From: Ptychomitrium polyphyllum | Lineage: Eukaryota | Direction: 5' to 3' | Length of the DNA stretch: 64,000 nucleotides | Assembly: GCA_973851085.1 (NCBI GenBank) | Contig: OZ316775.1 | Location: 15,872,001 to 15,936,000 of the forward strand | Part shown: piece by piece, positions 16,757-42,290 of the stretch | Numbering within the stretch: the first letter of the stretch is position 1 | Layout of the letters: every line of letters begins with the position of its first letter | The notes under the pieces: generated by a model | What the model saw: the letters and a program-made list of their open reading frames with translations, nothing else | Told to the model about the DNA's origin: nothing | Databases searched by the model: none | Program-made: the position numbers and the translations under genes

Positions 16757-19700
16757 TCAGAGTTCAAGGAGAGACTTGATTGTCCGGAAGCCATGATTTA
16801 AAGGTAATGGTGCATTTCCAGGACGTAGCAGGAGTACCGCTTGCAGACCTGAAATAGCAGAATAAGGGGACATTAGTGTGATACACAATTGGCATCAATG
16901 ACTTAAGAAGAGGGCGTTAAGACTAGTACAAATCAAAGACATTTTCTAAGCTTGAAAGGGTTATACTTTAACATAGGTAGCAAGCAACGCGACCACAAAC
17001 TCATTAGTAGGTGCTAAGAGGAAGGAAAAAGCTTTAGATCAGTAGAAAGGGACCTGCTTCCTTCGCAGCTATGGCTTCAGCAAGCACGTCGGTGGCAAAT
17101 GTTATGCAACTAGGGTGATCAGCTCCAACTGTAAGGTAAATTTCTTTATAACTCCTTGGCTCTCTCTTGTTTCTGAGCAAAAAAAATAAGGTATTCAGCA
17201 AGTTATAATTTCATCAGAAAATAATTCACAACCAAGATCGTAGACCATTTGGTCCCGACCCTGAACCTTTGAACTGCTACATTCTAGATAGTTGTGTGCT
17301 TACAAACTTTCCCAAAAAGCACATAAGAAAAACATCACGAAAATAAGTGGGTATACATGAATGAATAAGAAACCAAGTGACAACTATTACGAAGTTTTGA
17401 TGTTGAAGAACATACCCAATAGTGGTGTCAAAGAATCCAGACAAGTAGACCCGAAGGTCACCAAAGTTTGTATTTCCAAAAATAAGCTTTTGAGCCTCTC
17501 GGCTACCACTAGAGTATATGTATGTTTTAATGCCCCGTGCGTGCCACTCTGCCAGTGCCTCAGGAACATCATCAAAAACCACACCTTTCAACTCGCCATT
17601 TTCATATCCAACTCTCCAAATATGACCCTGCGGCAACAATATAAACAAGGAGTCAACATCAAAATGATTAAAGTCATGAGCACCAACCCAATAGCATCAG
17701 GGATCCTAAACATCCATAATTGATGAAGCAAAGCGAAGACAATTACAATACTAAGTTCGACCCGCACCTGCACTTCCTTCAGCGCAGTTACTTTTCGGTC
17801 AGCTATAATCATAGCCTGCACGTTCTTCTCAAGGGCTGCGATCACAGCATCTATGCCTGCACACTCAGCTGGTATTTGTGTAGCTCCCAGCACTTGGTTT
17901 CTCAAATCCTCATGCACCTGTAACCAAGGTTGCAATATCAGTAAAGCTAAGCAGCAAGACGAGTAACTTTGCCAAGCAAAATATCTACAAATGTGTGGTT
18001 TTATGTATGGTGCAATGTGCAAAGTTCCACCAACCTGGTCACGAAGCAGTCGAATGTCGTTGACTGTTTCAATACTGTTGTATGTGGATCTCAAGAAACT
18101 CCCGACATTCTCTTTCGCATACGGGAATAATACTTCCGTCACGAACGAGATAGGTGTTGTGGTGCCCTCGATGTCCAGCACAAACACATGCTGCAATCCA
18201 GTTACTCCACCTAAGCCACGGTTTTCGAAGAATAGCAATGTGCTCGATTCAGCAAGTAAAGAACACAAACACCCACTTCAAAAATTGAAGCCTTAAAATT
18301 ACAGAATCATGCACAGGAACTTCGCAACATAGACTCTAATATGCTGTATAAGTTACCTTCGAGCTAGCACCCTTGCTTGCGGAAGCTAGAGGAAGGGCCT
18401 GTGTTCTTGTAAGAAACCCATGTTTACTATCAGCTGGATCAAGGCCTAGTTGGTGAAGCTTCAAGGCAGCGTCGAAAAGGTAGTGGTAGCACTCTGCCTT
18501 TACAGGAATCACACCCAGCACAGTTTTAGGGATAAAGGTTTGGATTCCTTTTTTTATGGATAACCCAATTCTCAGAGGAGCAGATCTGGTACTACATCTT
18601 AAAGGTCATCAAAATCCTCTTACTATTCTGTACCGTTACTAACAGAGACCAAACACCTGCTTGCAATTCAATGTACGCATCACCAGCGACTGCACTAGGA
18701 CTAAAGTTTGCATAGTACCTGGGTTTTAGCGCTGATCCAAGAATCTCCCCAGATGTATATGCCGTGGTTTCTCACGAGGACTGCGGTTGCCTTTGGATAT
18801 GCTTCCATCTGAAATTGATAAGGGTCCGAGCTCAGGCTTACTGCTCGTAAATTCAGTTCCAAAACGTAGATCATTGACAAAATATCAAATATGTACAGTT
18901 ACACTTTCGAGAAAGAAAAACCTATCGTACAATCTACTCATACTCGAAACAAAAAGTTGAAACACAAGCATTGAGCTTCTTCAGATTTAACAGGAGTGCA
19001 GATGCTGGAAAAGGGACTTACAGCTGCAGCTAAAGAATCAGTAAGCTCATATTCACGAGCCGAATTCTCGATAATAGGAACAACAAGCTCGTCATAGTAT
19101 CCGTGCCCAGCAATGCCCTTGATCATCTCCATATGCGTGATCTGTACCCAAAGATTCTACAAATGGTCAGAATCCTGTATTATAAAATAGTCAATTACAC
19201 TTTTAGAGACGCATGGTAAAGACCAAAATATGTAACTAAGAGTTGATCCATCTTCCCACAAATATTCTTTGGTAGACAACGGTACCTACGATAGCTGAAT
19301 ACAAGTCGTAAATAGGCACCCAATTGCCCAATGAGTTTTTCAAGAAGTAAGAAGTGCACTTCTGAGCAAGACAGTCAACAATATGATGCCTACCCGAAAT
19401 TCTTTGGCCGTAGGATTGATCATGGTAGCAAGACATGATTCCAATCCATGGCTGTGGATGACAGCCCCAGCGTTTCGCATTTGGTACGCCTGCACCACCG
19501 AAAGAGATCCACATTAACATTTATTAGTTTAAAGCTCCATATTTACACATAGAAAATTGAAGTAGCATTTGAAGTAATGACAACGAGGGAGAGCAAACTA
19601 GACCTTGAGAAAGAGAGGGCAGCACTCTGAACACTTAGGAGGTTTGTGAGGTGGTCCCCTGACAGAAGGAGCTGATAGCACAGTCCCATCTGAACTCATC

Positions 19701-20532
19701 ACATACATGTCTTCGGGCAACATTCTTTCCTTCTGCACACCTGCGCATCGACACAACCCGGAACCGTTACACTACACAAGCTAGTAATTAATGATCAGCA
19801 TGCGACACAAGTGGGAACTATTCCATCTATATTATCAGAACATATTCTGCAATTTTAGGTGCACGCTGTTCCAACAAGACCGCCAAATTCGAAATAAAAT
19901 TTCACCAAAGAGGACCACTAGACGATATTCTCAGAGTTCAATCAAGAAACAGAACTAGACTAAGCGTGAAAGAGGTAAACTCGAGGTTTAGAAAGGCTAG
20001 AATGAGTATTGAAAACTAGTCATGAAGCATGATTGGCTTACTATAATCAGAGGACATAGCATTCTTTCTTTGCATCAAAGAATAGGAATCAATACGCATC
20101 ATTCCGTTGACTATAGAGGCTCTAGAATATTATGAAGAATGCGAGTAAACGACTTTCGCACAGGAACAACTGAACACCAAAAGAACACAGTCTCGACATC
20201 ATTACAAACAGAGGGAATTGATGCATAATTTCCAACCTTAATCGCGCGAAACGTAAGCAATAGCGTGAAGAATAATCATCGATTTTACATAATGCTGGGG
20301 ATTGACAAGAGACAATCTCACCTGAAGGAGCCATAACAATGAGACGCTCCTGCACATCCACATCGGGCTCCAACACCTTCAAGGTAATGCTCCCCCCGGT
20401 ACCCGACACCCACCCCTGATTGTAGAAATGCTTGCACAACTCCGCGGCCAACTCCTTGGCCTCCCCGACCTTGGCCGACCCAATCTTCTCCGCCGCCACC
20501 ACCGCACTGCCTCCGTCCTTCTCAAATCCCAT
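16757..20532 (-). CDS. DEP1: Bifunctional methylthioribulose-1-phosphate dehydratase / enolase-phosphatase E1 (methionine salvage, Yang cycle), 507 aa. Exons: 20532-20322, 19740-19604, 19489-19394, 19141-19022, 18808-18719, 18497-18357, 18190-18035, 17917-17768, 17627-17416, 17172-17054, 16848-16757
   Basis: MtnB motifs [39 protein letters not shown] and AECYHYLF, plus MtnC HAD motifs [14 protein letters not shown] and [11 protein letters not shown]. The 11 exons total 1524 nt in frame, all GT-AG. Confidence 0.96.
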
Positions 20533-22625
20533 CGCTCTCCGCCTCCTCCTATCAAACCCACCTCCCCTTCTCGGCCCTAAGTCCGGTACGGCAACGCCAA
20601 CACCGGATTTTCTCACACCTAGAGTCAGAAACAAAGACACAAGGTGAAGAAGTCTCGAAGAGAGAAGCCAACATGTAAGCAGCCTCGCATGCGAGAATAA
20701 AAGCAACCTGATTGATGATCCACGGATTGATGATCCCTGAAAATGATAGCAGCGTTGACGATTCTCTCTCGCAGAACAAAGACTTTCGGACCTTTTTGCA
20801 TATGGGTTAGTAGCTCGTGGAATAGAAGCATGTACCTGGACACAGAAGAGCATCTCCCCAGCTCGCATATGCAGATTCGGCAAACGGTCGTCCCAGGAAA
20901 ACTCGAGCACTTCCTCCTCCTTGAAAGCTGTGGCAGCCTCGCAGCAGAGTCCCTTCCAAGGCCATGGCCTTGGCTTTGGGATTGGCTGCAGTGGAAACAG
21001 AGCTTAAGGTTTTAGTAGGTCAGAACTGTCGACTTGCTATTTCACACTGGCCACAAAGAGACTAATAGAAGCCATTAAGTGCTCCATTACAGTACTGCTG
21101 TACTGAGCCTTTGTGAAAAACAGGGGCCTAACTTGTCGAGAATGTATGTTCTTATGTTTTGTAAAAGCTGCAAATACCAGGTGAGAAGTGCTGGAGATGT
21201 GGTTGAGGGTGTCTTCATGCTGGACGAAGTACGGTAGGTGTGGTATACAGAAAGGGAGGAAGACGATTGAATGTGAGTACAGAGCTTGTGCATACCGTTG
21301 GATCATGTTTCTTGCTATTTCTGGTTGTGGGCTTCCTCAGCTCATTGTGTTGCAGTGACTAGGGACCCTGAGAATGAAGCTCCTGTGTGTGTTTTACATG
21401 ATGCATTGGAGCAGGTAAGGACGGATGTTATTTCAAAGCAATTGTAGTTGTTGAGAAGGAAGAACCTTTTGTTTGGTTTATATTAGGGAAGAGGTTTGAT
21501 ATTAAACTTGTGAGTGCTATTCCATCATCACGTAAGAGCACCAATAATGCCAAACTGGTGAGTTAGAGACCTCTCTGTTATTATCCAAAGTTAACCACAA
21601 GAACTATTGGATGCCCATGGTATATGTTTTCATGAGCACCACAGATGCAGCCAAAGATTCAGCAAGAGGTGAATATTAAAGTAGTAACAGCTTGTGCACC
21701 ATGTAAGGTGGAACACGAACTGGTGACTGTAAATCATGACTCTTCCTAACAACACCACAACAGAATGCAAAGGACCACACTTGATGAAAATTTTGTTTTG
21801 CTACAACATATTTCTATTGTTCTATATAGGTGGTCTATTTACACTAAAGTGGAAATTTGCCCTTGTTCTTAGCAATCTGCCAAAGCTGTACCAGAAATCC
21901 AATCGAGTTTGTATATTGATTTTTGACCTTTAACGAACACCATTATTCAAATTAAAAGGAAAGATACTTTAATCGTTTCTTTTATTTATCTCACAACAGG
22001 ATAGATCCCTCTACAATATTCTTCCAAGTTATTACCTCCATCGTATTCAAAAAAATCCATTTACGTCACTATGAGAATGAAGTGAAATTGTTGGTCACAG
22101 CATCCACCTGTAAGCTGCAAGTAACATTAGTATCCTGGATTCCAAACAAAAGAAAACTCCACGTATCAGAACAAGGTTCGCCAGACAAAAGGAAACTCTA
22201 CATGTTAGAATAAGGTTCACTTAATATACATGCACAGTACATAATGTAGTACTAAACATCCATGTGCCACAGACAGAGTCGTTTGTTAGCAACCCAATTG
22301 CCCATGTATTGAGGAAAGAGTGGCAACCTCCTAAAATTGTCAAATCAGAGAGACCGACGTTCTTCTTTAAACACCCGTAACCAGGGCTCACTTTGACAAG
22401 ATTCAAAACACCCACATAAGAGCTGAACTTTGTATAGGTCCTCATACGCAGTGCCAACTTATGAACTAACATGTGGTACCACAACAGGAGTATGGGTTGA
22501 GAAAATCGAAACATAGACCTTGTCAATTGTAGGGATTCTGTCACGTTCCGTTCCCCGTGAACGGAGTCTAGACATTTCATATCTGATTAGTTGATTGCAG
22601 TTAATCTAAATGATTGTTTCTAAAA

Positions 22626-22699
22626 TCCATCCCAAGGGAATTGAACCCTTCTAACCATATCATGAGAAAGTGGTTAGTGTTGCCTGTCAACATGGATGG
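22626..22699 (-). ncRNA. tRNA-like cloverleaf A (mascRNA-type four-way junction; not a canonical tRNA)
   Basis: Minus strand reads CCAUCCA | UGUUG-ACAGG-CAACA | CUAACCA-CUUUCUCAUGAUA-UGGUUAG | AAGGG-UUCAAUU-CCCUU | GGGAUGG | A. Confidence 0.8.
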
Positions 22700-24817
22700 T
22701 TTATAGAGTACTGCTACAAGATACTTGCACAATACATTGCTTCATTCTTACCATTTCCATTAAAAGTGTTGAATATATCAACCGTCTTCAGGGAAAATCT
22801 CAATGCATGTTTGGTCCACATCGAAAGACCAAATATCTCGATTTGTTTAAGCCAACAGGTCATAGAGATAGAACATGTAAAATAATCTCCATTCATAATG
22901 AACCATAGATCTGATCAAACAGATGACGCCTAAAGCCCAACGCCTCAAATTTGTAAACTACATAATAGTGAAGAGCACCATTCACTTACAACTATATATA
23001 ACAAGAAATAAACTTGGACAGGATTCTCTTTTACGAACACCCATCCCTGTCAAAAATGAACAAGAATAACTCTTAGAATGATCCAAGCTTTAGACTCTAC
23101 CACCCCAATTAGAGGATAATGCGAGACTTGTATAATGTTAACGCAGGCTACCTACTACATACTTAAAACAGAAGCAACGAGAAACACGATAAATAAGAGG
23201 TCAACGGATGACAATAACAAGATAAACAGGAAACTGTGAAAGAGAAAGCAACTCAATTTTTAAATACCTACTACTTCGAAAAACAAGCCAATTCTTTACA
23301 TGTAGTTCTGAGCTGATCAAAACTAGTGTCCTTTCGGATGGAACAACTAACAATATCCGAAGAACATTTTGGAATGACAATTGAATATTGAACTCAGTTA
23401 TCTTTCATTTCTGTTTACAAAAGTCCACCAATGTAACAATCGTTGGGGCATAACGAGGATACTCTTCCGTTCTGAAGACGCAACCGCAGAAGATTGCACA
23501 TGTCACTGCCTCTAAAACGAATCCACCACGGCGCTCAGTACACAGTGAAAACTCGTCCAAAAACTCCACTACTGAAGAACACCAATTGATACTCCAGTAC
23601 ACCCGCTCCAGGCTGCCAAATTAAACGTCTCCAGCTGATTTCAGTCGGCAGGTTCCTAACTCAGCATCCCCATGGACCTGAGCAGTCTAGCTTCAAATAC
23701 TACTATCTACCAACCAGAACAATTCCTAGAAACTATGTTCAAAGCATTATAAACCCCAACAAGATGAGCATACATTTCAACGCAACTGAACAGACCTCTC
23801 AACTACCTACAAAAATGTCAATACAAGGTTCGCTAAGCTCTGTTCTAATCGTGTTGTAACTAAAAGGAAATTTTCTAATATTTCTTATATATAAATATTA
23901 ATACAAAAATATATGGACATAGTGAGCCTCAACTGAGGTAGATGCAGAGAATATATAATCGAGTCCAATTGAATCAGACGTCTTCGTGAAAGTATATATA
24001 AACAATCGACGAGACAGCAGACGACTTCACAGTCCAAATTTGAATGTGCAGTGTCTCCACGATGTAAACTGATAGTGTGATGCTCAAGTGGATGAGAGGT
24101 GTTCAAAATGAAATGGTGTCTACACAATAAGAAAAATTCTAGGAAAATAGACGAAACTTTCATAAAAACATGCGAGTTCCTTTCCGGGATTGACGAGACT
24201 AATCGTGCACGAAGGACTTAATAGAAATCGCTTACAAATGAGGATAGATCTACTAACTACTTAGAGAAAAGGAAGGTGTTTGGATGAAGATTCAAAAAAA
24301 AAGGAGGGAGGACCAATGAAATGACCTACGTAACCTAGAAAATGCAGAAACTTACAAGCAATTGAAATCCAACCAACATTACAGTTGAGGTTGAGACACA
24401 ACTACCTTAAGTTGTTGACGACAAATCGGTGTGTGCTGGACTCGGTGGACGGTCATTGCTAGCAGTAGTAGTAGGCCCCTTGATATGAAGAAAGAATGCA
24501 TCCACCCACACAAAAACTCTTAACAAAGAGCGATGGGGGACATTACCATCAGATATTGTAGAAAGACAGGGAAATTGCCAGTCTCTCACCCGTCAGCATA
24601 CCATGGCTTTCATCCAACCAAAATAAAATGATGATACGTGGTCAGGGACTGTTTGAATCTCCTGCACCGTCTCAAGATTATTCGACGGAAATTCCTAACA
24701 GGGTAAAATTCGATAAGTAGCATGTGCCATTTGATAGTGTTGGTTGAGAATGCTGATGGTACAAGAGCTTCTATCTCCACCTTAGATCTCCACATCCACG
24801 CAACAACACTCCAAATG

Positions 24818-25118
24818 CTTCACCAACATGATCTGAGACCTCAAGTCGGTGTCCGTATGAGTTCTACAAGCAGTACCAAAAAATGACGTCGCATGATAGC
24901 CAGATTACCACACCCAAGAGAGGTTAGCGACACAAACACCACATACGACCAACACAACACAAGCGGGAGGATCAATCCTCCCTGCACCACGTAACATATT
25001 TTTTATTAAGAGTAAGACCCGCCCCGTAAGCGCACCCATAAGGGCAAGGTCTCGCGACACAACAATCAGCCTGGTAACTTTCAGTTCAACCATGGCTAGA
25101 CTGCGGCCGTCAACTCTT
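24818..25118 (-). ncRNA. Conserved structured RNA domain A, with core hairpin at 25014-25053 and a second hairpin at 24963-24985
   Basis: Aligns with 32382-32700. Core GAGACCUUGCCCUUAUGGGUGCGCUUACGGGGCGGGUCUU folds into a stem with compensatory changes relative to copy B. Confidence 0.75.
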
Positions 25119-25840
25119 TAAACCATCATCATCCTCAACGCAACATGTCGAATGCGTAAATAACCGCCGCTGCAACTATCCCGAATAGTGACTCCTTGTT
25201 GAACATCGTAAGCCGCTTAAATCTCTGCTTCAAACCTAACAATACAAGAACATAACCATTTGTTACATTATCTCCCCGACAATCGAGCTTATAGCCGCTG
25301 AACCAGAAAGGAACCCAAGCACAACTTTTCAAACTTAGATTATGAGAACGAAGGAGAAAAACCTCACCGAAAACTCCGGTTCAAGCGCCAAGAACCAAAA
25401 CCGCAAGTCAGTCGCCACAGACGAAACTCCATCATCCTAAAAAACAGCAACTAAGCTCCTCGAGCACCATGCGTCGTCATGACGGACAATCGAACTTCTG
25501 CTCTCTCAAGCGCGCCGTCCACCTTAACCACCATCTCCTCCGCGCTCCCTTCCTTTCCAAACCTCCCGCCAAGGTACCTCCGCAACAGAGAGTTCATCGT
25601 CACCCTGTAAACCACGTCCGGCTCCCTGCCACGAACGCACTCCGCAAAACCACGCCATACACACAACCACGCCTCCCGATTGCAGCACTAACTCCATCGA
25701 ACGCTCGTTCAAGCACACCATGCAGCGCATAATCGCACAACCTCAGCTTAAGTTAGCCAAACTAGTGCCGTTCTCTGCACGTCTTCCACTTGCCAGAATC
25801 TATGCCTCGGACGTCGACAGCTGTGATCGCAACGGCAGGC

Positions 25841-26084
25841 CTAGGGTTGTCGGAAGCAAAGAAGCCGTGCAGGGAACGACAAGGAAGTGGTCAAGCGGAG
25901 AGCTCAAGACGGAGGTGCTTCGGGAGAGACGACCCTATGGCCGCCTCTTCGCTTGACAGCCGTCGGTTTAAAGGCCACGGATTTGAGGTTCGACATAGAG
26001 ACCGTAGATGTGCGAACTTCTGGAACCTTCCACAGCCCACGCGTCTGAAGGCGGCTGCGTATCGACCGTAGATGGATGGACGGT
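25841..26084 (-). promoter_or_regulatory. Putative promoter/5' region of locus A
   Basis: Telo-box-like AACCCTAG (25841-25848) and ACCGTAGAT at 26001 and 26065; the same motif types occur upstream of locus B. Confidence 0.4.
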
Positions 26085-28768
26085 TTCAAACTAAAGTGAC
26101 GCATGGCAAGTAACGCCTATCACTCTAGTGTAAGGGAAGTGCGTCACTGCCAGCCAATCTGGGAGAAGATCTTTATGTGGGAGCCAGACTGCCAGCTCGA
26201 CAGAAAGTATACTTACTTTAAAGTAAAAGCGCATACATACCATCATTCAGCAGTTACAGGAACTCACCGTCACTTTGCAAAGTGAGAAACCAATGACAAG
26301 GAGAGCATGTCACATGTATGGATGAATGCAGCACATAAACCTTTTCAATCTTTAATGGAACAAGGTTTTGACCATATAATGATACTTTTGAAAGGAAGGT
26401 ACTTAAAAGGATAAATAAAAGTTAATAATTATATATTCACTAGTATTATGTACAGCATTTTTCATCTTAGTCAAAATAAAACACAATTAATTCATAAAAT
26501 GTTATTTTTCTCTTTAACTTTTAAGACAATTCTTTCTCAAACTTATAATTTGGTATAAGTTCAACAAATCTTTGAATGCATATTACATATATGAGATATT
26601 TCAATTGTTAGTTAATGATCTTATACATTATTATAAGACATAATATAGAAGAATATTATAATGAATCATCATATCAATACAAATGGTTTCATTGTATTTT
26701 TAATTCATTTATACTTCATTTTACGGACATAGATCATGCAATATAGTCCTTAGAATCTTCTAAAGTCCACTATATTCCAATGCTAAGGTTCCATAGATAT
26801 TCCAATATTTAAAAAACTTCTTAAGAGGGTTCCATCTCCTTAGAAAACTTCTTTGAAAGGTTTCATAGACTTCTAAAACATTCTTAGAATATAGTTTCTT
26901 AAAAGTATTTTGGAAGTATTTTAAAAGTCTATATTTGTAATTCCTATAATACTTTTTTTTTTCAATTCAAAAAATTCTAGAAATAAATAAAAAAATAAAA
27001 TTGTACAATATGAATGCTCACAAAAACAATTATTAAACATTTCAAACACAAATTTTTAAAATAATAATTTTAAATTTGAAAAACACAAGGAAAGTTTTCA
27101 AAAAAAATTTACATTTTTTCATTTTAAACCTTTATATTCTCCTTTTGTATATAAATTATAATATATTATAATATGTATTACTTATTTAATATTTGAAAAA
27201 ATTTCAGTGCCTATTAAAAATAAACAAAGTCTATTTTTCAAATGGATTAAAAGAATGGTTCTTTGAAGCAATTCCTTTTTGATATAAATTAACATTTTTG
27301 GATTTATGTTATTACAAACTATTATCTTGGACTTTTTAGTTGGAAGTGATAATTTAACAAGAAGAAAATGCTTGTTTAAATATTTTATTTCTATACTGAA
27401 AAATAAATCAATACATCTATATTATTATTTAAATACAAGTGTCGACATTCATAAACAACAAGGAAGATTTCTATTTATAATTTCACCTTATTTTTTTATT
27501 ATTTTCCTAAAATTCCAATTTAATTTCAAAAATTATCATTCTTAAAAATATTATCAATAAACCATTTATTCTCAATGGTTATGTACAAAAATCAACAAGC
27601 TTTAGTTGGAAATAATATAAGAACAATATAATTATATCAATGTTGATTTTTTGATTTTATAGGGAGTTAATCAAATCTAAAAATTCTAATGATATATATT
27701 TAATGATTTAAATCAAGAAAAGAAGCAAATAGTAATTTGTTTCATTTCTTAACTTTGGTTGTAATACCAATGTAACATTGCATGAATATAAAATCCAAAA
27801 AATACTATTTATATATTAAATATATTTGATTGTTAAATATATTCAAATAAATTTTAAAAATCTACTTTTAATAATTATAATAAGTTGTTTTTATTAATTC
27901 GCAACCAAATTGTATGAAATAAGCATTCAAAAATGAAGTTATGTACAAGAAGTTGATGTGTTAGCATTTATAATGATGAATTTATAAAAGGATGATTTTT
28001 AAATAATTTTTTGAATCCAATGTCATCATATTAAATAAAAATTTCTTTGTTTTTAACTTCATGTTATAATTAGAGACATCCATGGAGGACATATATTTAA
28101 TTACAATTCCATTAGTATAATGAGTAGAAAATCTAATTATGAAGTTGAAAAAAAACTCTTATATGGAAGTATGTTTTTTATATCTCATGTAAAATATATG
28201 TGTACATCTTTGTTATTAATTTTGTCTTTATTGTACAATAAAATTTCCTTAACTTTAATTGAAAAATTTCAAAGAATCAAATGTGAAGATAATCTGTGGA
28301 AGTCATAAATTACATTATTAAGAGATATATTTGAATAACCATACTATTATTTTTATTTATAATACAAACAAAAAATACTCTGCTTTCAGTTGAACTTTGA
28401 CTTGCATATGTTTACAATCAACCGTTGCCAAGCATAATTCCCATAGTATTATCTTTCTGATATTTAAGTGTTGTACAAATCAGAAACAAATATTGAGACT
28501 AGACAAGTACTCTAAGAAATCTAATGGACCTTTTCACTCTTGTAACACGTAATGAACAAGGGTTCTAAAGAATGTTATCTTGAAGCACAGTAAAGAACTT
28601 CAACCTCTTCCTACAGCCACAACATGAATTGTGGTAAAAAAACAACTATGCCCATGACCATATTGAAGGTGTGAAAGCTACACAAGGCATATACTAATGT
28701 GGGATAAATGTAACTTCAACTGACAAGATGTGATAAATATGGTTCACAACAACTGCAAAGAGCCTGGA

Positions 28769-29915
28769 TTATGATGTATAGCCACACATTCCATACTGAC
28801 ACACCTCTCCGGAAGGACAACTGTTGCTGCAAGACCCACAATGTTCATTATTGTTGAACATGTCAGTGCAAACCCCGTTGCAACATATGCTTCCATAGAA
28901 GCAAATGTGACCACACATCCCACAATTGAACATATCTGTTTTCATGTTAGTGCACACAGAGTTGCAGCAGTCCGGTCCTAAAAGGAAGTTGATGGGTTCC
29001 TGTTCACATATTTGCTTCTTCCATATGCATAAATACTGTGCAGAGAGTCGCCTTCCATTTGCAGGCTTCATGGGCTCCCCTGTTGAAAATCTGCCAGCTG
29101 GTACAGTATTCGAGTCAGCACTACACCAAGTAGACAGAGTTTAAGTTCATAGTTTGAGGAGCCTTCTAATGCATTAAAGTTATTTGTAAATTCACTCGTT
29201 TTCATAATACTCATCCACATGTTGCTGAAGTAAAGCAGATAAGTTCACAAAAAACTCTTTTGTGTTTATTAGTTTCCATTAGTTTGATTTAGTATTTTTG
29301 ATGCAGTGCAAGCACACTATCAGCATTTTTGATGCAGTGCAAGCACATTATCAGCATTTTTGATGGGCACACAAACGCTAATCAGTAAAACTTCTGATAG
29401 GGTACCCTGCTTATCAGAATTTGAGAAAGTTTAGACAAAATTTATATACTCCCTGGTGTATAGGTAACTTATATCATGTGAGCATGGATATTGACCGTAA
29501 CCCAAAGGCTAATAAAAATTACTGTCATCTGAGCAACTTTGCATCTACTTGTTAATTACAGAAGATGTTTGGAGAATGATATTCAACCCTTCAGGTTGGA
29601 AGTCCGGAATAGTCGCTTAGGAGTCAGGCTGCTCAGATTAGAGTTCATTTCTAGAGCTGGGGAGATGATACTGGTAGAGCTGGATTCGGCTACAACAGCA
29701 GTTGGGAAACTGGAGATGACCACAGTGAGCATCACAAACAATAAAGCCAATCGCAGCTGCTTCACCGAGTTCAATAAACCAGGGTCGCCAGGGAATTCAA
29801 CTGATGCTACTCCATCCCCAACGCATTTGGCAGCTGACCTGTAAGTGAATAGCCATTTCCGTGTGACTCGAAACCATTCAGAGTATTGACATGAGAAGTG
29901 GGACTGTTTAATCAT
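28769..29915 (-). CDS. STIG1-domain cysteine-rich secreted protein. Exons ~29915 (start uncertain)-29588 and 29097-28769
   Basis: C-terminal CCNSVCTNMKTDMFNCGMCGHICFYGSICCNGVC..NNEHCGSCSNSC..CQYGMCGY has STIG1 cysteine spacing. The hydrophobic segment LRLALLFVMLTVVISSFPTAVVA joins in frame through a phase-1 GT-AG intron (NLK-AGRFSTGEPMKP). The true start may be an internal Met, or lie in an upstream exon using the acceptor at 29838. Confidence 0.8.
29294..29365. repeat. 31-bp tandem repeat, ~2.3 copies, in the STIG1-gene intron
   Basis: atttttgatgcagtgcaagcaca(c/t)tatcagc twice, followed by atttttgatg. Confidence 0.9.
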
Positions 29916-30642
29916 GTCGCGACGACAAGACTAGCATCCGGTATATACATTGTTTTCTGTTCCTGAGCATTTGAACTATATCACTCCTCGTTGTGGATTC
30001 AAGCCTCAAAATACTTCCAATTCAGATTCTCCCGACGCTTTTGCTAATGCAACTCCGTCAACACCTGATTTTGTTCAAAATTGTAGAGCACACGATTAGC
30101 CTGCACAAGCAACTGAAAATATGGCATATTACTCCCTCTATAGATGATGTGATTATTAACCATGACAGACTCGCACATATTCTACTGATAAAACCAAGAG
30201 GGAAACTAATAGAGTCGACGAACCGTCCACAAGCTCGGACAGTGAGAGCAACCGATACAGATGATCCGACATAACCGACTTCTCTATAACCAACTCGTGA
30301 CCTTCGGCACTACCTCCATAACGGTGGCGGCCCAAGATGCAACCGCAGCGGTTACATTCGACGCAGAAAGCCATTAGTGTTAGTTTGATTGCAGAACGAT
30401 CGTTTAAAGGGGTACTCAAACCAAGGGGAACGATTTGTAAACAAGGGGAAGGGCAGTTTTTCATCGACGAAGGTCAGCTCTCCTCCAAAGCAGAACGTGA
30501 CAAAGCAATAGCAGCAGCGATCTACGGAGCACTAGCACATTCCAGACGGACCGTTACACAAGAGTTCATCGAAGTTTGTCAATTTTAATGAGCCTCACAT
30601 CTACAAAAACTAAAGCAATTGTTTAATGCGGGTATGGGCATT

Positions 30643-30717
30643 TACAATCCAAGGGTATCGAGCCCTTCCAACCACCTCCTACATGAAGTGGATGGTGTTG
30701 CCGATCAACAGGAGTGT
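30643..30717 (-). ncRNA. tRNA-like cloverleaf B (mascRNA-type four-way junction; not a canonical tRNA)
   Basis: Minus strand reads ACACUCC | UGUUG-AUCGG-CAACA | CCAUCCACUUC-AUGUAG-GAGGUGGUUGG | AAGGG-CUCGAUA-CCCUU | GGAUUGU | A. Confidence 0.8.
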
Positions 30718-32381
30718 TTAGAGATATTGCTTCACCGTCATGAATGCTACTGATGGTACGTCAGGTTAACGCAATAAGTTCACAATTCCGGAATTCATGC
30801 AGCATCCAATGCACCAAAATGACGATCTGCAATGTAGTCCAAACGAGTTAAAAAGCTTCTCATGTTTTCTGTACCTTTGATTTAGGGAAATGCAACGAAC
30901 AAAATATTTACATTTACGTATCAGAATACAATGGTTCCCTTGCTCACATGCATCACCTTATCCGCTCGAATGGATGACAGGTCCTTTCCATCAGCGGAAA
31001 GAAGTCAAATTTAAGAGCACTTAAAAATTTCCACCTCTATTTCACATGCTGTACAGCAAACGAAAGTTGAAAATCATCAGACTGTAAAAGCAACCAGAGT
31101 ATAAAACAGACATCACCAGTACAAACTAAAGAAAAACAGAGCCTGCAATAAATAATGATTCCAATAGGAGATTAGTAACGTGTAAAACAAGTAAAACAAT
31201 GAACTGCCTACATGCCTACATTTTTGAAATTTGTGGTACATTTCAATTTTCCTTACAGATATTGCAGACGATTTTCCAATAGCTAAAACTCCCAAGTTCA
31301 AAAGAAGGACATCCTTTACAAATAACCTCTTCACTACCTACAAGCCTAAAGATAAAATGTTTCTCTCTCCAATCAACTAAACTACAGAAATATGCTGCTT
31401 AAAATGTCTGCGTGTACACTAATTAATAAAGACCCTAGTGAAAGACTAATGTGTAGAAAAAACCACTACATCATTCATGGACTTTAGATCGTTTTCCACA
31501 GTACTCACCTCCAAGTGTATCATCTGCTTTACGCCATACCGAACGGTTCTACAATCTACTACATCCTATCCACATACTAACCGATGATTAATTCTGATGG
31601 TTAAGGTTCATCAATTTTAAACTGACAGATGCATTTCTACAAAATCGACATTTCTAAATACCCTGACGAGTAGGCAGGATATCAACATTACTCAACTGCT
31701 GAAAGCTTATACTTCTAGAAGGACAAAAACATCACCAGATTAATTATCTAATGATGATGTAAACACACATAATTGCTATCGATGTAACCAGATCATATCT
31801 TTCAAGAAAAATCATAAATGATCCAAAAAAAAAATAGCATGCTGAAAGGAAGGGAATAATGTATCACAAAGTAGAAAATATAGGAGTGAAAAGATTAAAA
31901 ATTAACAAAGAAAATACGAAGACAAGCACATGCTGCACACTACGCACAAATCAAAGATCAATGACTAGCATGTACCAACATCAGGATAAAATTGATTTTA
32001 TGAATCGCAAGGAGTGTGAATTGAGACACTACCTTAGAAATTGGTGTAGGTATGGCACATGTATGCTTGGGATAAATGCTTGAGAAGAGAGAAAACCGAA
32101 AAACACAATCAATGATGTAGTATAGAAACACCACTCTGTAAATGAATGTGTTAAGAAACTTTGGAATCAAAGATGATGTAGTGCGCAACTTTGCCCCAGC
32201 CTGGTCGCCATCTAATACGCGGTATCACAAACTGCTTCACAAGTGCTCCAAAGTCATGTAGCATAGTCTAATTTAACACTTATGTACCACGAGGAAAACG
32301 ATGTGCTGCTCCCAGTAATAAGAAGTCCAGATCCTCGGGTGCCACTTCCACACCTCCTAAAGCACAAACGTTGTCGTACGA

Positions 32382-32700
32382 CTTCACCCGATTATTGAGA
32401 CCTTAGCCCAGGTGACTATGTCTGCGGAGGCACCTCCGGAGAGCAGCCGGGAAGCAAATACAGAATAATGTTGCATGATAGTCAGGTCAACGCATCCGAG
32501 ACAGGTTACCAACACAAACCCTTGCACGACCGACACAACACCACCAAGAGGATTGATCATCCCCACACCACGAAACCTTTCTTTTTATTGAGAGTGAAAC
32601 CTGCCCCGTAAGCGCACCCATGAGGGCAAGGTTTCGCGACGCAATAATCAGCCTGGAAAACCACACTTTATCCATGGCTAGACTGCGGGCGTCAACTCTT
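32382..32700 (-). ncRNA. Conserved structured RNA domain B, with core hairpin at 32596-32635 and a second hairpin at 32548-32564
   Basis: Core GAAACCUUGCCCUCAUGGGUGCGCUUACGGGGCAGGUUUC; upstream block AAGAGUUGACGCCCGCAGUCUAGCCAUGG differs from copy A at one position. Confidence 0.75.
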
Positions 32701-33424
32701 GAAATCACAATCCTTGACGGAGACAAAATGTGCAAGGCGTAATATGTAGTTCTCTGGTAAAAAAAGTGTGCACTATCAACCCGACGACGGTGGAACACCG
32801 ACGATTACCATACAGTTGAACAAATCCTGATAGCACAAACACCGAACTATGAGTCTACCAAACAAAATACCTGTAATCTTAAAAACTATGTTCAGGTACA
32901 AATGTGACGTGGAATGACAGAAACAGAACTAAGAGAACTGAAACAATAGCCATAACAAAAGAAAAATCGAGAAGGAGTGCTGCCATACGCTTCAAATACT
33001 TGAAAGCACAAGAAATAACAATCTTACCATACAAACATAGTGCGAGGTCGCATATCAATCCCGTCCTTCAGCATTTTGGCGACTCCCCAAGTAACTGGAG
33101 CTCAACCGCCATCCCCCCGACTCCAAAAAACAAGCCGATCCCTCAACCATGTCATCTCATTGCACTGGAAACCGCCTCCACCTTCCTTCTCCCCAATGCA
33201 GTTCGGCCCGAACATCTCGGGATACAATTCACTGCCTCGATCACTCGAACGTTCCATAGAAAAGCGCAACACAAACACCTCGCCGCTTCACCTACCATCT
33301 CGCTCCACCGAAGAACCTCCGCCTCCACTTCAAAAACTGCTCACTATTCACGGTATACTCTTAATGGTACAATAACAACACCAAGTCTTTGTGCACAAAA
33401 CAAGAGAACGAGCGATGTTACGAG

Positions 33425-33713
33425 CTAGGGTTACAATGTTCGAAGCTAGGGTTATAGACTGAGAAAACTACGACAGTGTCGATCTGCCGCAACCTAGACG
33501 TCGGACGCGTTATATAAATTGCTGCAGTTAGAGAAAGATGGCCTATGTTAGTTGGATCTGGTCTCCACCGTCGATCTGTACCCACCGCATTTAGAATGCC
33601 ACTTGTAGCCGTCGATAGGGACTCGTTGCGCGCGGTTGAGGATCTCCGTAGACGAGATGTAGAACGTTCCAGGGCTCACTGTTAGAGAAGTCGGTTGTAC
33701 TACCGCCGTTGAT
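33425..33713 (-). promoter_or_regulatory. Putative Pol II promoter/5' region of locus B
   Basis: AACCCTAG twice (33425, 33446), TATA-like element at 33510-33518, and RCCGTYGAT at 33567, 33608 and 33705. Confidence 0.5.
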
Positions 33714-35843
33714 ATTTTGGACGAGAGGTGTACAGCTTAAATGCTACATTTTCGACATCTGGCGTTTCCTCTACACTTGTAATCCCAATTCGGCTCGAAA
33801 TTAATGTAATGCTTAATTTAGTACCTAACAACACAATGTAGAATCGTATATCACTTAGTATAGTAAATCTAATAAAGTAATTATAACTTTCATAGAATTT
33901 AATTGATTTATATTATTATATTGAGAAGGAATTACGTTGAGAAGGAACTACATTTATTATTATGTTTATAATAATGCCAAAATTTAGTAACTTAGATAAA
34001 ATTTTAATGTTTGTTGAAAATTCAAAATTTTATCTTTATAATTCTTAAGTTTTTACATTATAAAACATAGAAGTAATGGAGATTAATTAAATAAGTTTAG
34101 TTATTGATGTTGTAGGTGATGTTTCATTAATGTTGTAATTAATACCTTTATAAAAAACACTTATTTTATATTCTTATAATGTATTCATATAATGTATTTA
34201 AGTAACTTACTATAAAAATTTATCAGTTTTCCTAAGTATATAATCTTAAAATTAATAGGAAACTATCGCATCATTAATGTGATGGCATTTAACGCAAGTT
34301 AGTATATTTTTAAAAATCATTTTAATGATAACCGATGGAACTGTCATTTAATAAATATAGAAAATAAACAAAAATCAAAGGGATTATATATAAGTTGTTT
34401 AATTAAGTGCATACAATGCTTTTGAAAATTTCTTTTTTTAAAGGTGTTTATGATTTTCAAAAGAATATATTGTTATTTTTTTTAATATTATATAGAAACT
34501 TCCTGCTTCATATCAATCCTAAACCTTGTGGTACATACAAGCTTGTAATATTTTAGAACAATATCTAATGCATCCGTTTTATAACAAAATATATACAAAA
34601 CAACAATATCATGGAATTTAATTATTTAGGGTATCAAAAAGTGACATATACTCAAATACTTCAAATACTTAGAAAGCCTATGGCCTCTTCTTGTTCAATC
34701 ATGCCATTGCACACAAATACAGTTTCTGTTCTGAAAGTTAACCATAAAAATATGGAACTCAAGAGTGAAAGGTTAAAGAAAACAAGGATGAAAAGTTAAA
34801 GAAAATAAGGATGGTACCATACTCTGGTACTAAGCTCGAAGATATGAAGGATGAAAGGCAAAAAAGAAAACATGAAGGGCTCGAGAGAACTTTAAAGACA
34901 GGAAGATGTGAAAGTAAAAGCCCGCTATGCATCGGTTCCGAACTGTATGTCGCCACCTAATAATATTGATATCTGTCTACTAGCGATGCTCATGTCCGTC
35001 TAATACCGAGGCGCACTCGTCTGCGTCGAGGATCGCAGCACATGCCGAGGCTTCGACAACTGCGAACAACGTGACACAAGACCAACAATGGAAGCGCGCG
35101 GCATTGTTATGTGAATCCACCCGAAAGCTTTAGATTCTGGTGTAATATGTTTCTGTACATTTCAAATGGTTGAACTCCACCGAGACATCATTGGTGCATA
35201 GCATGTTGCAGAATGCTTTCCTGATCAGTACATGGTTTGGAGTTTAGGGCAATCTTCCAACGCTTCCAACAGAGGGGGGCTCATGCATGGTTTGCCGAGG
35301 TTTTCCAGAAGAGAATGAATCTCATCCGGTCCCAGGTTCTAACGTCTTCCACTGAAAGAGATTGCAGCTGCAATGCCGAAGTCGGTGTTCTTGTTCATTG
35401 TTTGATTCTAGGGTTTCATCGATTATGTGCTCAATAGGTGGGTCCGAGTTCGTTGGAATTTGATTCTTTGTAAGAGCTTGATGAACTTTTCTTTTCCCAC
35501 TATTTACTGGGTTGAACTTTTCGGACTCAGGTGAATTCTCAGCATGTCGGTTTTGGTCTTTGGGAAATGTCAATTAGGGTTGTGGTGAGCTTGTGACGAC
35601 GAATCATTTTACTGGTTGATTTGTTGAGTGAATTTAGTAAAGAGTGGGTAACAAGTCAGTGGGTGATAAGTTAGTGGTTTTGATCATCACAGGAATGGAC
35701 CGTTTGCTATGAATGCTGTTGTGAATTAACTATGTAGCTCTGTTTGCTGACAATGTTTGTTTGGTTTGTCAGGTGATTCACTTCGGTGCACTTGGTCTTC
35801 ACGGCTGCACAATAAGTTAGTAGTCGTCCAACCTAAGTGCGGG

Positions 35844-38800
35844 ATGACTTCGCAATCAGCTTCGATGACTTTCTGGTGCGTTGCTTGGGTTGGGTTTTTG
35901 ACGTGCTTTGTGCCGCGAGTGGTGGTTGGAGATCATGTGCGTCCTGTGTTGAGGTTCAACAGCGAGGGCACTTTTAAGATTCTTCAGGTGATTTATTTCT
36001 TAGCATCGACATTTTGATATATCTAAGTCGGCAGTCTTGTCCAGAAGAGTGATTGTGCCGTTGTGCACTTTTTATTTTTCATTCTTAACGTTAAATTTAG
36101 GAATGTGGCGCTAGCTCCTATTGAGATTTCAAATATGCATCATGATTGGAAGAAATCGTGTTAATCCGTCAAGTTATGGTCCAAAGTCGTAAAAACCCTA
36201 ATTCTATCCCAAAGGCCTTGGATGTTCAAGTTGAATCTTAATCATTATCCCAATCATAAAGTATTCACTTTCTGATTTATTTCACTTGGGTATACTCAGT
36301 CTGATCATACTCGTTAACTAGATAAATCTATCGAACAATTCTCTGCCCTAAGACTATTCTGCAACTTTCAGTATTAAACGCACTTGAGAGCATAATGGTC
36401 TTTGTTTGGCTTTGTCTATCTGATACTTATGCAATTACCTTGCATTGGATTATCTGATCAGTGCTGGTAATGCCATTGTTTCACTAAAACACCATGAGGA
36501 GTGAGGTTTTGGTTCCTGGTAGTGCCGTTGCGGTTCAGTTTCTCAGTACGCTTCTGGAATGTTGCAGTAGGACCACACGAACACGATATATTTGGTAATG
36601 GAACGATGTGTGGTTGCCTTTCTGTTTGTCTCTTTTACACGTCAGTTGAAGGTCGTTGACGATTTTTCTCTCTGTGAATGTGATGATGACATACGGGTTT
36701 AATATTTTAGCAAATTTCTGGCAGATGCTTTTGTAATGTTTGACGTCGTGATTATTACTTATCTTCGCAGGTTGCTGATATGCATTTTGCACAAGGTGCT
36801 CAGTCGCAGTGTTTTGATGTGTCTTCGTCATATCATTGCTCTGACTTGAATACTACTGTCTTCATTGAGCGGTTACTGGCTGCGGAGAGGCCTGATCTGG
36901 TTGTCTTTACTGGTATGCGATTGTACATTCTTGTTTTTGCACGGTGTTCTTTGAATCGAGTAGCTTGATAGCATGATGTTGATGATGTGTTTAGATTTAT
37001 TTCCGAATCTCCCAGCAAGTCGTTTTCCCAAACCTCAGCGTCTTGAAACTAGTGGACTACAATTGCTTGGTGAAGTGTATTCTCGAACAAGAATGATTCT
37101 GTTAATCAGGATGCGGTTGTGAGAAATACTAGCAGATTTGAGTAGTAGATTAGTTTCACAACTTTCCTTCGTAACTTGTTCCTTCAGTGTTTTGAGAGTT
37201 TACATCAAGAATTTACGTATATTCTTGCGCAGGGGACAATATCGACGGCGGTACTGCCACGGATGCCATCAAATCAATGGACCAAGCTTTTGCTCCAGTG
37301 ATAGCTGCTAAAATTCCTTGGGCTGGAATATTAGGAAACCATGATCAAGAATCAAATATACCACGAGCGAGGGTCATGGAGTATTTAACAAAGATGGATT
37401 ACTCTGTGTCTGAAGTTTTGAACCCTAGCATGGAGAGTCTTTTAGGGAAAAGCATTGACCACAGGGCCTCAATTGAGGTTCATGGGTACGGAAACTACTA
37501 TCTGCAGGTGTTCGGTGCTTTGGACTCAGATTCTGCCAACTCAAGCCTTCTCAATTTGTATTTTCTTGATTCTGGGGACTACTCAAAGTTTGATACTGTA
37601 GGTGGCTATGACTGGGTGCGAGCCAGCCAGTTACTATGGTTTGAAAATCTTGCGACAATGCTTAGGGTAAATATTTGTACCTGTCTTTCTATCTTGCGTG
37701 AGCAGGCTACTGGAGGTGATTGAGCACTATTGTAAATATGTTTTGCGATTTTCACATGAGAGTCTCTCTGGGTGGGATGCTGTCCCTTTGGACGCTCTTG
37801 AAAAATCTTATGCAATTTCATTGCTAGCCTATTCCTGTATCTGGTTTTTATGACTGTGACCGATAATTTTCAGGCGGAATCTGACTTGAGCTATTGAGCT
37901 GTTGCTAACACCCACTTGTAAATGTCTGCGGTGTTTCCCTTGCAGTCTGCGGAGGCCTCGGCAAATACTCAAATACCTCCACCTGTTACTCCGGCGTTGG
38001 CTTATTTCCACATCCCGATTCCTGAATACAGTGCAGTATTTATGAATCCTTCTACGGTGGTGGGTGAGAAACACGAAGTGATATGCTCCGCATCTGTGAA
38101 CTCTGGACTGTTCACGTCCCTTGTTGAAGCTGGGGATGTCAAAGCCACGTTTGTTGGACACGACCATGTCAACGACTACTGTGGCAGTCTACTTGGCATT
38201 AGTTTATGCTATGGAGGTGGCATTGGCTACCATACATATGGGTATGTGTTTATTGCTCATATAGTACCATTCAACATTGATAATCTTCTACATAGATCTT
38301 GAAATACTGTATATAATTGCTGCCAGTTACATGTTTTCTGCCACTCTTGTTGGGATTGGTCCTGGTGCTGTCTTTGTATGTTTGTTTTGGTTAAAATCAC
38401 TGTCTAAATGAATAATTATTTCATGTTTTTAATCGATCAAGATTCTGGTTCACGTTTGTGCTTCAGGAAAGCTGGATGGGCAAGAAGGGCACGGGTAGTG
38501 CAGGCCTCTCTTGGGAGGGGCGCGAAGGATGGTTCAAAAATCACAAGAGAGATCACAACATGGAAACTTCAAGATGATGAGGACTTGAGTAAAACAGATA
38601 TACAAATTCTGTACAATGGTTATGCGGGTGAATGGTTTTCTACGCCTTTCTTCAGCAGAAGCCTTTTATTCAGGAGAACTGGCAACAACTGGATTCCTAG
38701 TTTAACCCTCTTGTTGCTGCTAACAGGATTGGCTGGAGCATACTTCTTGGTTCATTTTTTGGTTCGGAAATTTCCAAGTCGTAAAAGGACAAATAACTAT

Positions 38801-38851
38801 TCCCCTGTTGAAAGGCCATCATCCGTTGAATCAAATGATGTGTACGACTAA
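35844..38851 (+). CDS. Purple acid phosphatase-like metallophosphoesterase (PAP14/28/29, Dcr2-like clade). Exons: 35844-35987, 36771-36912, 37233-37666, 37946-38241, 38467-38851
   Basis: Signal peptide; motifs LRFNSEGTFKILQVADMHF, PDLVVFTGDNI, LGNHDQES, LYFLDSGDYS, LAYFHIPIPEY, FVGHDHVNDYCG, YGKAGWARRARV; GT-AG introns in frame. Confidence 0.93.
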
Positions 38852-41735: not shown

Positions 41736-42290
41736 ATGGGGGTGATCATATCGAGGTTGTGGTTTTACATGTTTCCGGCAAAAGAGTACAAAATAGTTGT
41801 TGTGGGTTTAGACAACGCTGGAAAGACTACAACACTCTACAAGCTGCATTTGGGCGAGGTGGTCGTCACACAGCCCACAGTAGGCAGCAATGTGGAAGAG
41901 CTTGTATACAAGAATATACGTTTCGAAGTCTGGGATCTTGGCGGCCAAGAGCGACTGCGGACATCCTGGGCGACCTACTACCGAGGCACCCATGCGGTGG
42001 TGATGGTTGTTGACAGCACAGACCGGGCGAGGATCTCGATTATCAAAGACGAGCTCTTCAAGTTGCTGCAACACGAGGAGCTTCAAGGTGCCGTTGTGCT
42101 GGTCTTCGCAAACAAACAGGATTTGAAAGATGCGATGACTCCAGCGGAAATAAGTGATGCGCTGTCGCTGCACAGCATTAAGAATCACGACTGGCACATT
42201 CAGGCATGTTGCGCACTAACAGGGGAGGGGCTCTGGGACGGTTTGGGGTGGGTTGCGCAGCATGTGACTGGATCCAAGGTCACGCCCTAG
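41736..42290 (+). CDS. ARFC1: ADP-ribosylation factor-like GTPase (ARFC1/ARL5 type), 184 aa, uninterrupted CDS
   Basis: MG myristoylation start, [51 protein letters not shown]; splice acceptor tcag at ~41714 just before the ATG suggests a 5' UTR intron. Confidence 0.95.

Follow-up and report, generated by a model that had tools for sequence, protein, structure and literature searches.

The stretch analysed here (the window) comprises 64,000 nucleotides (nt) of the moss Ptychomitrium polyphyllum (GenBank assembly GCA_973851085.1, contig OZ316775.1, positions 15,872,001 to 15,936,000 of the forward strand), and contains on its minus strand two paralogous loci, A and B, each with a conserved structured domain, in which a core hairpin is followed by an AAUAAA hexamer, and each with a cloverleaf further downstream that resembles a transfer RNA (tRNA) and is referred to below as the mimic (Table 1). 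GUT15 and CR20 were among the earliest plant long non-coding RNAs (lncRNAs) to be described, and it is likely, judging from sequence comparison, that loci A and B are moss lncRNA genes of this family. As far as can be read from their letters, they have no coding signature and no conserved protein-coding frame, and none of the eight open reading frames (ORFs) tested within or overlapping them reaches the Pfam cut-off.

Table 1. Features of loci A and B, in coordinates of the window.
Feature	Position	Strand	Basis and remarks
Locus A, inferred 5′ region with AACCCTAG, taken to be telo-box-like	25841..25848	-	Transcription start inferred from GC rise
Locus A, conserved structured domain	24882..25159	-	BLAST pair, consensus fold and pair counts, land-plant alignment
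Locus A, core hairpin	25016..25051	-	UGCG tetraloop at 25031-25034; 27/37 nt identical to GUT15 core (L030); compensatory pairs
Locus A, AAUAAA	25002..25007	-	9 nt 3′ of core; sole minus-strand AATAAA within 22000-27380
Locus A, tRNA-like element A, 74 nt	22626..22699	-	Fold, pair comparison, descriptor
Locus B, inferred 5′ region with two AACCCTAG motifs	33425..33453	-	Motif scan; 5′ region inferred
Locus B, conserved structured domain	32464..32742	-	Junction ~32590-32700; BLAST pair, consensus fold, pair counts
Locus B, core hairpin	32598..32633	-	UGCG tetraloop at 32613-32616; 26/37 nt identical to GUT15 core
Locus B, AAUAAA	32584..32589	-	9 nt 3′ of core; sole minus-strand AATAAA within 29271-33950
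Locus B, tRNA-like element B, 75 nt	30643..30717	-	Equal linker-free layout; T loop CUCGAUA

The two modules, their order and their strand are common to both loci, with an offset of 7.58 kb in a self-BLAST of the whole window, in agreement with a previous reading of this DNA made from the letters alone (the sequence-only reading), which had placed two minus-strand loci of equal order and strand about 7.6 kb apart. In this comparison the domains pair over 283 columns with 77% identity (E 6e-54) and the cloverleaves over 88 columns with 75% identity (22632-22718 / 30649-30734, E 4e-6), the remaining pairs at E <= 0.01 being AT-rich or short. From the end of the core to the cloverleaf there are 2317 nt in locus A and 1881 nt in locus B, which reproduces the 2.3 and 1.9 kb of the sequence-only reading; its cloverleaf coordinates were exact, and its domain pair is recovered, with the limits that it gave (24818-25118 / 32382-32700) lying 41-82 nt too low. 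Its further claim that the loci are barely alignable outside these two parts is borne out by the spacer between the modules (2.1 and 1.7 kb), where no excess of similarity is found (alignment score -503, with a mean of -526 and a maximum of -503 in 20 shuffles), and by the 5′ parts of the loci, whose alignment is equalled or exceeded by the best of 50 shuffles. Loci A and B are alignable solely in the structured domain and the cloverleaf, and the two-module arrangement observed at both of them is real and selected.

Relatives of the core hairpin were sought in a metagenome with a pattern of 21 letters taken from the two moss cores, so that 21 core letters are fixed by the pattern in every match; the scan gave at least 123 loci (43 of 64 parts covered; about 180 estimated) with 129 matches, corresponding to 65 distinct contexts, mostly in low-GC DNA of plant type. 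One of these loci, L030, is Arabidopsis GUT15, with exact matches for six of the eight primer and probe sequences of PMC6152437, and with a mimic of 81 nt and an ORF of 75 codons that agree with the values reported there, whilst another, L003, carries a mimic 12 nt shorter, matching the description of CR20-1 in the same report. L030 and the CR20-1-like L003 are alignable, as is the moss pair, in the core domain and the mimic, to which a promoter patch is added. Loci are called here moss-type or angiosperm-type by their core only, the taxon being established for L030 alone. Between the two types, compensatory swaps (C-G/A-U and U-A/C-G) are found around the UGCG tetraloop at positions left free by the pattern, and over all the pattern-free core positions 94% of the cells are paired, as against 88% in shuffled sequences (0/500 shuffles; 23 distinct rows). 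The sequence-only reading had identified the hairpin as the conserved one of the CR20 family in GUT15, and the identities given in Table 1, together with the compensatory pairs, uphold it: that loci A and B belong to the GUT15/CR20 family can be held with high confidence.

The domain surrounding this core has a recurrent layout. In domain A a three-way junction (~25008-25118) that includes the core hairpin leads to the AAUAAA; a U-rich linker then connects to a second hairpin (~24965-24982), after which comes a GU-rich tail. In 45 non-redundant contexts the letters downstream of the core are likewise A-rich at first and then U-rich, with a second hairpin next and a GU-rich tail behind it. The hexamer is found at no more than 30 nt from the core in 46 of 55 contexts, compared with 3.6% of random 30-nt windows, and four of the nine misses are GC-rich, bacterial-looking contexts, without which 46 of 51 plant-type contexts possess it; for this count the contexts were picked by folding energy alone, the plant-type set of the cloverleaf descriptor scan being the one in which an AATAAA-like motif was used. 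Domain A is more stable than its shuffles (z -2.71), and in the seven moss-type sequences the three-way junction closes immediately before the AAUAAA, with 10 of 43 pairs changed on both sides (1/500 shuffles), four of them in the closing stem, a count that is indicative only, because the structure derives from the same alignment and the seven rows belong to two clades. A reading of the hairpin-linker-hairpin layout as an Sm site or an H/ACA RNA was dropped, the linker and tail motifs being variable in the alignment. In L027 (core 7001-7031) the AAUAAA has been lost via a short local duplication, and the downstream mimic is intact.

The second module folds into a cloverleaf without linkers. 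Element A consists of a 7-position acceptor (one mismatch), a D stem of 5 base pairs (bp), a 5-nt D loop ending in GG, a long middle arm, a 5-bp T stem with a UUCAAUU loop, and a discriminator A; in both elements the middle arm has 7-8 bp and the T loop 7 nt, with zero nucleotides between the helices and no variable loop. The minus-strand folds reach z -3.07 for A (2/200 shuffles as good) and z -2.06 for B (8/200). Between the elements 53 of 75 columns are identical, the 2-kb spacer being at shuffle level, and the D and T stems are the same, the remaining changes lying in loops or occurring as pair swaps. Compensatory swaps affect 3 of the 25 cloverleaf pairs, which is not significant alone (65/500 shuffles), so that of the compensatory changes claimed by the sequence-only reading for both modules those of the hairpin domain stand and those of the cloverleaf are not significant by themselves.

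A strict linker-free descriptor, written from elements A and B themselves, recovered these two and no others in the window, found nothing in 200 shuffled windows, and had no match in 646 kb of fetched loci; the cloverleaf pattern gave two chance matches in viral contigs and none in prokaryote genomes, and a model made from the two moss mimics (R2), run over 523 kb and over 80 kb without a filter, added no member. ARAGORN finds no tRNA at either element, nor does Rfam at E <= 10, its matches being sub-threshold only. The best of these, Plastid-ycf2 (28.4 bits against a cut-off of 65.7), lies on the opposite strand and was set aside as a mere likeness of the T arm. The marks of a canonical tRNA gene or of a tRNA-derived short interspersed element (SINE), namely an ARAGORN or Rfam match, an A-box and a 7-nt anticodon loop, are lacking in A and B. 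About 19 nt directly 5′ of each cloverleaf (22700-22718 and 30718-30734, minus strand) fall inside the BLAST match, so conservation may extend to this leader. At 22751 (minus strand), 52 nt before element A, there is a strong donor-like site, which would put the element near the 5′ end of an intron; at the corresponding place of locus B no site of like strength is seen.

The association of hairpin and mimic extends beyond this moss. In a descriptor scan of both strands of the plant-type loci, cloverleaves were found on the strand of the core only, none being antisense, and at 1.1-3.1 kb downstream of it, the upstream cases being explained by a tandem paralog; a model from 14 angiosperm mimics gave 32 strong matches in 64 sources, each of them on the same strand as the core, which is partly so by construction. 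For the counting of linkage, a flank of at least 3.3 kb was required, which left 34 angiosperm-type and two moss-type cores, the loci being redundant, and a mimic lies downstream on the same strand in 22 of the 34. The sequence-only reading had expected linked homologues in other species, and the hairpin and mimic do recur in flowering-plant loci, including Arabidopsis GUT15. Tandem core pairs 3.8-4.3 kb apart occur in the angiosperm-type L001, L015, L033, L063, L035, L036, L074 and L075, and in L001, L015, L033 and L063 every tandem core has its own mimic. In the shorter moss-type L065, L067, L068 and L071 no mimic is seen. Some candidate mimics of the moss-type loci were rejected for want of a cloverleaf fold, namely the calls made by ARAGORN under relaxed settings and a conserved island of L067 and L068; a weak model match in L051 and L076 was rejected because it lies inside a protein-coding gene.

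Copy number was judged from the sequencing contigs of this moss (two runs of one sample, possibly the source of the window). Four different contigs end at the core, with a depth of 38-48, the single-copy level, and so show that this moss has at least four single-copy cores. One contig beyond A and B contains a core and a match to 22677-22702, the 5′ part of the cloverleaf, in the same order and within ~4.1 kb, and the letters that adjoin this match can be read on into a paired middle arm and the first part of a T arm; since this third contig links core and cloverleaf, at least three of the four paralogs carry the mimic. For the cloverleaf, one additional contig was found, at single-copy depth, in a search at 80% likeness that more distant copies would escape. 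The sequence-only reading had named high-copy transposon or SINE parts as what would overturn it, and the modules, near single-copy depth in the contigs, are not high-copy repeats.

With respect to known systems, the moss loci share with GUT15 and CR20-1 the core hairpin with its UGCG loop, the AAUAAA, the U-rich linker, the second hairpin and the GU-rich tail, as well as a tRNA-like element on the same strand 1-3 kb downstream, paralogs alignable only in the modules, and the lack of a conserved ORF; they differ in that the moss core is found within a larger three-way junction with an upstream hairpin of moss type. The mimics differ more, for those of GUT15 type possess linkers and a variable loop beside a canonical D arm, and match the tRNA model of Rfam (47.9 bits in GUT15 and 44.1 bits in the CR20-1-like locus), whereas those of the moss have neither linkers nor variable loop, have a 5-nt D loop, and do not match it. 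In this they approach the mascRNA and menRNA of the MALAT1/NEAT1 system, also situated downstream in an lncRNA (a presumed one in the moss), where four helices are joined without the eight linker residues, with a small D loop containing two G and a tRNA-like T loop (PMC11693755). The moss mimic is longer (74-75 nt, as against ~58 in mascRNA), with a 5-bp D stem and a longer middle arm, and the RNase P of plants is protein-only, unlike that of the MALAT1/NEAT1 system. As modelled, the moss mimic has the linker-free layout of mascRNA, a likeness that is most likely convergent; with 221 nt scanned at each element, the mascRNA-type Rfam models gave no match at E <= 10. A further parallel is found in the t-elements of plant mitochondria, tRNA-like structures without a decoding role that are the cleavage signal for PRORP in longer transcripts (PMC4919922), from which the moss mimic differs in being nuclear and tied to the core domain of an lncRNA, and not part of an organellar mRNA.

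What is known of these systems allows a mechanism to be proposed. The mimic of GUT15 is processed from an RNA polymerase II (Pol II) transcript and receives a CCA end, cannot be transcribed alone, and slows the splicing of its intron, and a small RNA arises from its 5′ flank (PMC6152437). In the crystal structures of mascRNA there are no linker residues, and the GG of the D loop and the T loop are kept as a tRNA-like core (PMC11693755); PRORP in turn protects G18, G19 and C56, and moss has a nuclear PRORP whose knockout is viable (PMC4919922). By analogy with GUT15, a Pol II transcript would run through both the hairpin and the cloverleaf of each moss locus, and the mimic, to judge from its shape, would form an elbow like that of mascRNA, between the GG of the D loop and the T loop. 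Nuclear PRORP and tRNase Z would recognise this elbow, cut at the mimic and release a small RNA, which, as in GUT15, would be CCA-tailed, the splicing of the host region being disturbed. This cleavage would set an alternative 3′ end, or a turnover route, for the upstream RNA bearing the hairpin, and cutting at the mimic would compete with splicing or polyadenylation. The working part would likely be the hairpin-AAUAAA-hairpin domain, present in all the members found, as a structured site for 3′-processing or other RNA-binding proteins, and the mimic would be an accessory processing signal, lost in some paralogs. The fixed AAUAAA and the U/GU-rich tail suggest a site for 3′-processing factors that is regulated or acts as a decoy, the least certain step, because GUT15 is read far past its AAUAAA. 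As a whole, this mechanism, in which the cloverleaf of moss GUT15/CR20-family lncRNAs would be cut out by the nucleases of tRNA maturation, appears to us reasonably probable by analogy. A bolder version, to be taken as tentative and on balance doubtful, would see here an ancient lncRNA of land plants with two competing 3′-end signals, one being the structured AAUAAA between hairpins, which would bind the polyadenylation machinery or be masked from it, and the other the downstream mimic, which in the moss would have converged on the mascRNA fold and be cut by PRORP, as a module like that of MALAT1 without the triple helix.

Several observations weigh against the reading of A and B as GUT15/CR20 genes with a processed mimic. 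When GUT15 is compared with locus A or B by direct BLAST, nothing is found at E <= 0.5, so the link between them is short and structural; it rests on the 37-nt core, the flanking layout and covariation, and the sequences counted for covariation are related ones of two or three clades. Domain B folded alone has a stability at shuffle level (z -0.21). In GUT15 the core is found ~450-480 nt from the 5′ end of an RNA of 2399 nt, and as transcription continues well beyond the AAUAAA, this is not a constitutive poly(A) site. The promoters of A and B have a likeness at chance level (local score 19, shuffled mean 19.5) and share 16 7-mers against 14.5 in shuffled sequence, a number reached in 112 of 300 shuffles, so that the shared promoter motifs of the sequence-only reading do not hold. 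In regard to the cloverleaf, each element has an acceptor mismatch, and element B has a C at position 54 of the T loop; with the angiosperm mimic model (R1) element A is the top match in the window (18.8 bits, E 0.018), a place it shares with an unrelated match at 43666, and B is unlisted. The moss cloverleaf is at most a putative descendant of the GUT15 mimic. The mimic is not detected in 12 of the 34 angiosperm-type cores, which cluster together in the alignment, nor before the next gene in the two moss-type loci with sufficient flank, L051 and L076 (95% identical to each other); of the linked unit proposed by the sequence-only reading, the linkage is recurrent and is not obligatory. Lastly, no A-rich tract precedes the mimic, the last 60 nt having at most 6 (A) or 5 (B) A per 10-nt window, and consequently a triple helix of MALAT1 type is absent; in the same 60 nt a run of five or more U is absent in A and occurs once in B. 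The analogy with MALAT1 drawn in the sequence-only reading therefore stands for the shape of the mimic and falls for the triple-helix tract.

Among the alternative explanations, the one that survives best, unlikely as we consider it, accepts the moss hairpin as the homolog of that of GUT15/CR20 and supposes that the cloverleaf does not descend from the GUT15 mimic, another tRNA-like element having been recruited for the same job. The different layouts of the two mimics and the Rfam score of the GUT15 one, the weak scores when moss and angiosperm mimics are crossed with each other's models, and the lack of a mimic in the other moss-type loci would all be understood in this way; the same strand and a similar distance (1.9-2.3 kb in the moss, 1.1-3.1 kb in angiosperm-type loci) would be less so, as would the fact that element A, the top match in the window of the angiosperm model, retains A3-U, U4-A and C5-G in its acceptor, the pairs that occur most often across all 14 angiosperm mimics. 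Returning to a mimic that is part of the lncRNA, it could be objected that the cloverleaf is an independent small gene of RNA polymerase III placed downstream of the lncRNA by coincidence, in view of the full B-box of element A and the four T directly after its discriminator. This is improbable to a considerable degree: there is no A-box, the D region being shortened, element B has no T run beside it and a mismatch in its B-box, the mimic of GUT15 could not be transcribed alone (PMC6152437), and an independent gene would have no need to stay on the strand of the core in three paralogs.

Nor is it at all probable that the cloverleaf represents the remains of a tRNA gene or the head of a SINE, duplicated passively with the locus. 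The acceptor mismatches, the absence of the mimic from several family members and the non-significant covariation of the two copies would fit such a decay, which is opposed by the conservation of the elements beside a spacer at shuffle level, by D and T stems that are invariant, with the changes in loops or swapped pairs, and by a depth near single copy at 80% likeness, when a true repeat at 26.7-26.9 kb reaches ~300-fold. That the conserved domain encodes a short peptide is scarcely credible, for the 62-codon ORF which runs through the core from the same ATG in both copies, with one database protein of the same length (84% identity) and an in-frame ATG before the core in most loci, shows 12 non-synonymous against 2 synonymous differences in its first 31 codons, changes least at third positions (3/16), has a length of 9 to 109 codons depending on the locus, has no in-frame ATG in 4 of 53 loci, has database relatives in which the frame is retained, shifted or lengthened or the stop is lost, and belongs to ORFs for which no Pfam match reaches the cut-off. 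No viral relative of this ORF was found; it is a by-product of RNA conservation.

The linkage of hairpin and mimic is already published for Arabidopsis GUT15 (At2g18440) and CR20-1, which share a structured segment and the mimic, in a report whose available passages name monocots and dicots only (PMC6152437), and a review of 2023, in the part available, gives GUT15/CR20 an angiosperm range and limited functional data (PMC10226578). No moss member of the family appears in the literature searched, which consisted of titles, abstracts and passages, the original CR20 and GUT15 reports and the tables of moss lncRNA catalogues lying outside this scope. As far as this search extends, the moss range, the mimic of mascRNA shape, the near-invariant AAUAAA and the wider linkage in angiosperms are new. 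Structural conservation between moss and Arabidopsis would mean that the family was already present in the land-plant ancestor, and the selected parts are now pinpointed (tetraloop hairpin, AAUAAA, second hairpin and mimic) and open to gene targeting in moss. Comparable elements are probably unannotated elsewhere, because the moss mimic escapes the standard tRNA and Rfam scans, and a fold like that of mascRNA, in a lineage whose RNase P is protein-only, would reveal which features of tRNA both types of enzyme need. A related angiosperm-type subgroup (L006, L010, L025, L034-L036, L060, L072, L074 and L075) keeps the domain and has no mimic within 3.2-10 kb, and the mimic-less subgroup represents a natural deletion series for functional comparison.

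In the 5′ regions, the AACCCTAG motif is what we take to be telo-box-like. The sequence CCGTCCAT is found within the promoter patch common to GUT15 (L030:2146-2210) and the CR20-1-like locus (L003:69-133), and this 8-mer recurs upstream of locus A (26060-26075, minus strand) and not upstream of locus B. Also upstream of locus A, at 26720-26900, is a short AT-rich interspersed repeat, whose depth in the two runs is ~300 times that of single-copy DNA; it is probably what remains of a small transposon.

Of the neighbouring genes, an intronless ARL5 gene (41736-42287, plus strand) has a product 96% identical to a Physcomitrium cluster and ~80-90% identical to vascular-plant proteins, as expected from the bryophyte host assumed by the sequence-only reading. 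An ORF of STIG1 type (Pfam E 1.5e-21) is located downstream of element B, and a gene with an aldolase-II domain downstream of element A. The STIG1-like gene (28769-30560, minus strand) closely follows element B, with promoter-type motifs ~100 nt past the cloverleaf (30520), and because these are so near, lncRNA B may end at or near the mimic or overlap the start of this gene. The remainder are ordinary moss genes: one of aldolase-II/phosphatase type (20125-20531 and 17277-18277, minus strand), presumably of methionine salvage, a calcineurin-like phosphoesterase (37196-38851, plus strand) and a GRAS protein (48128-49778, minus strand).

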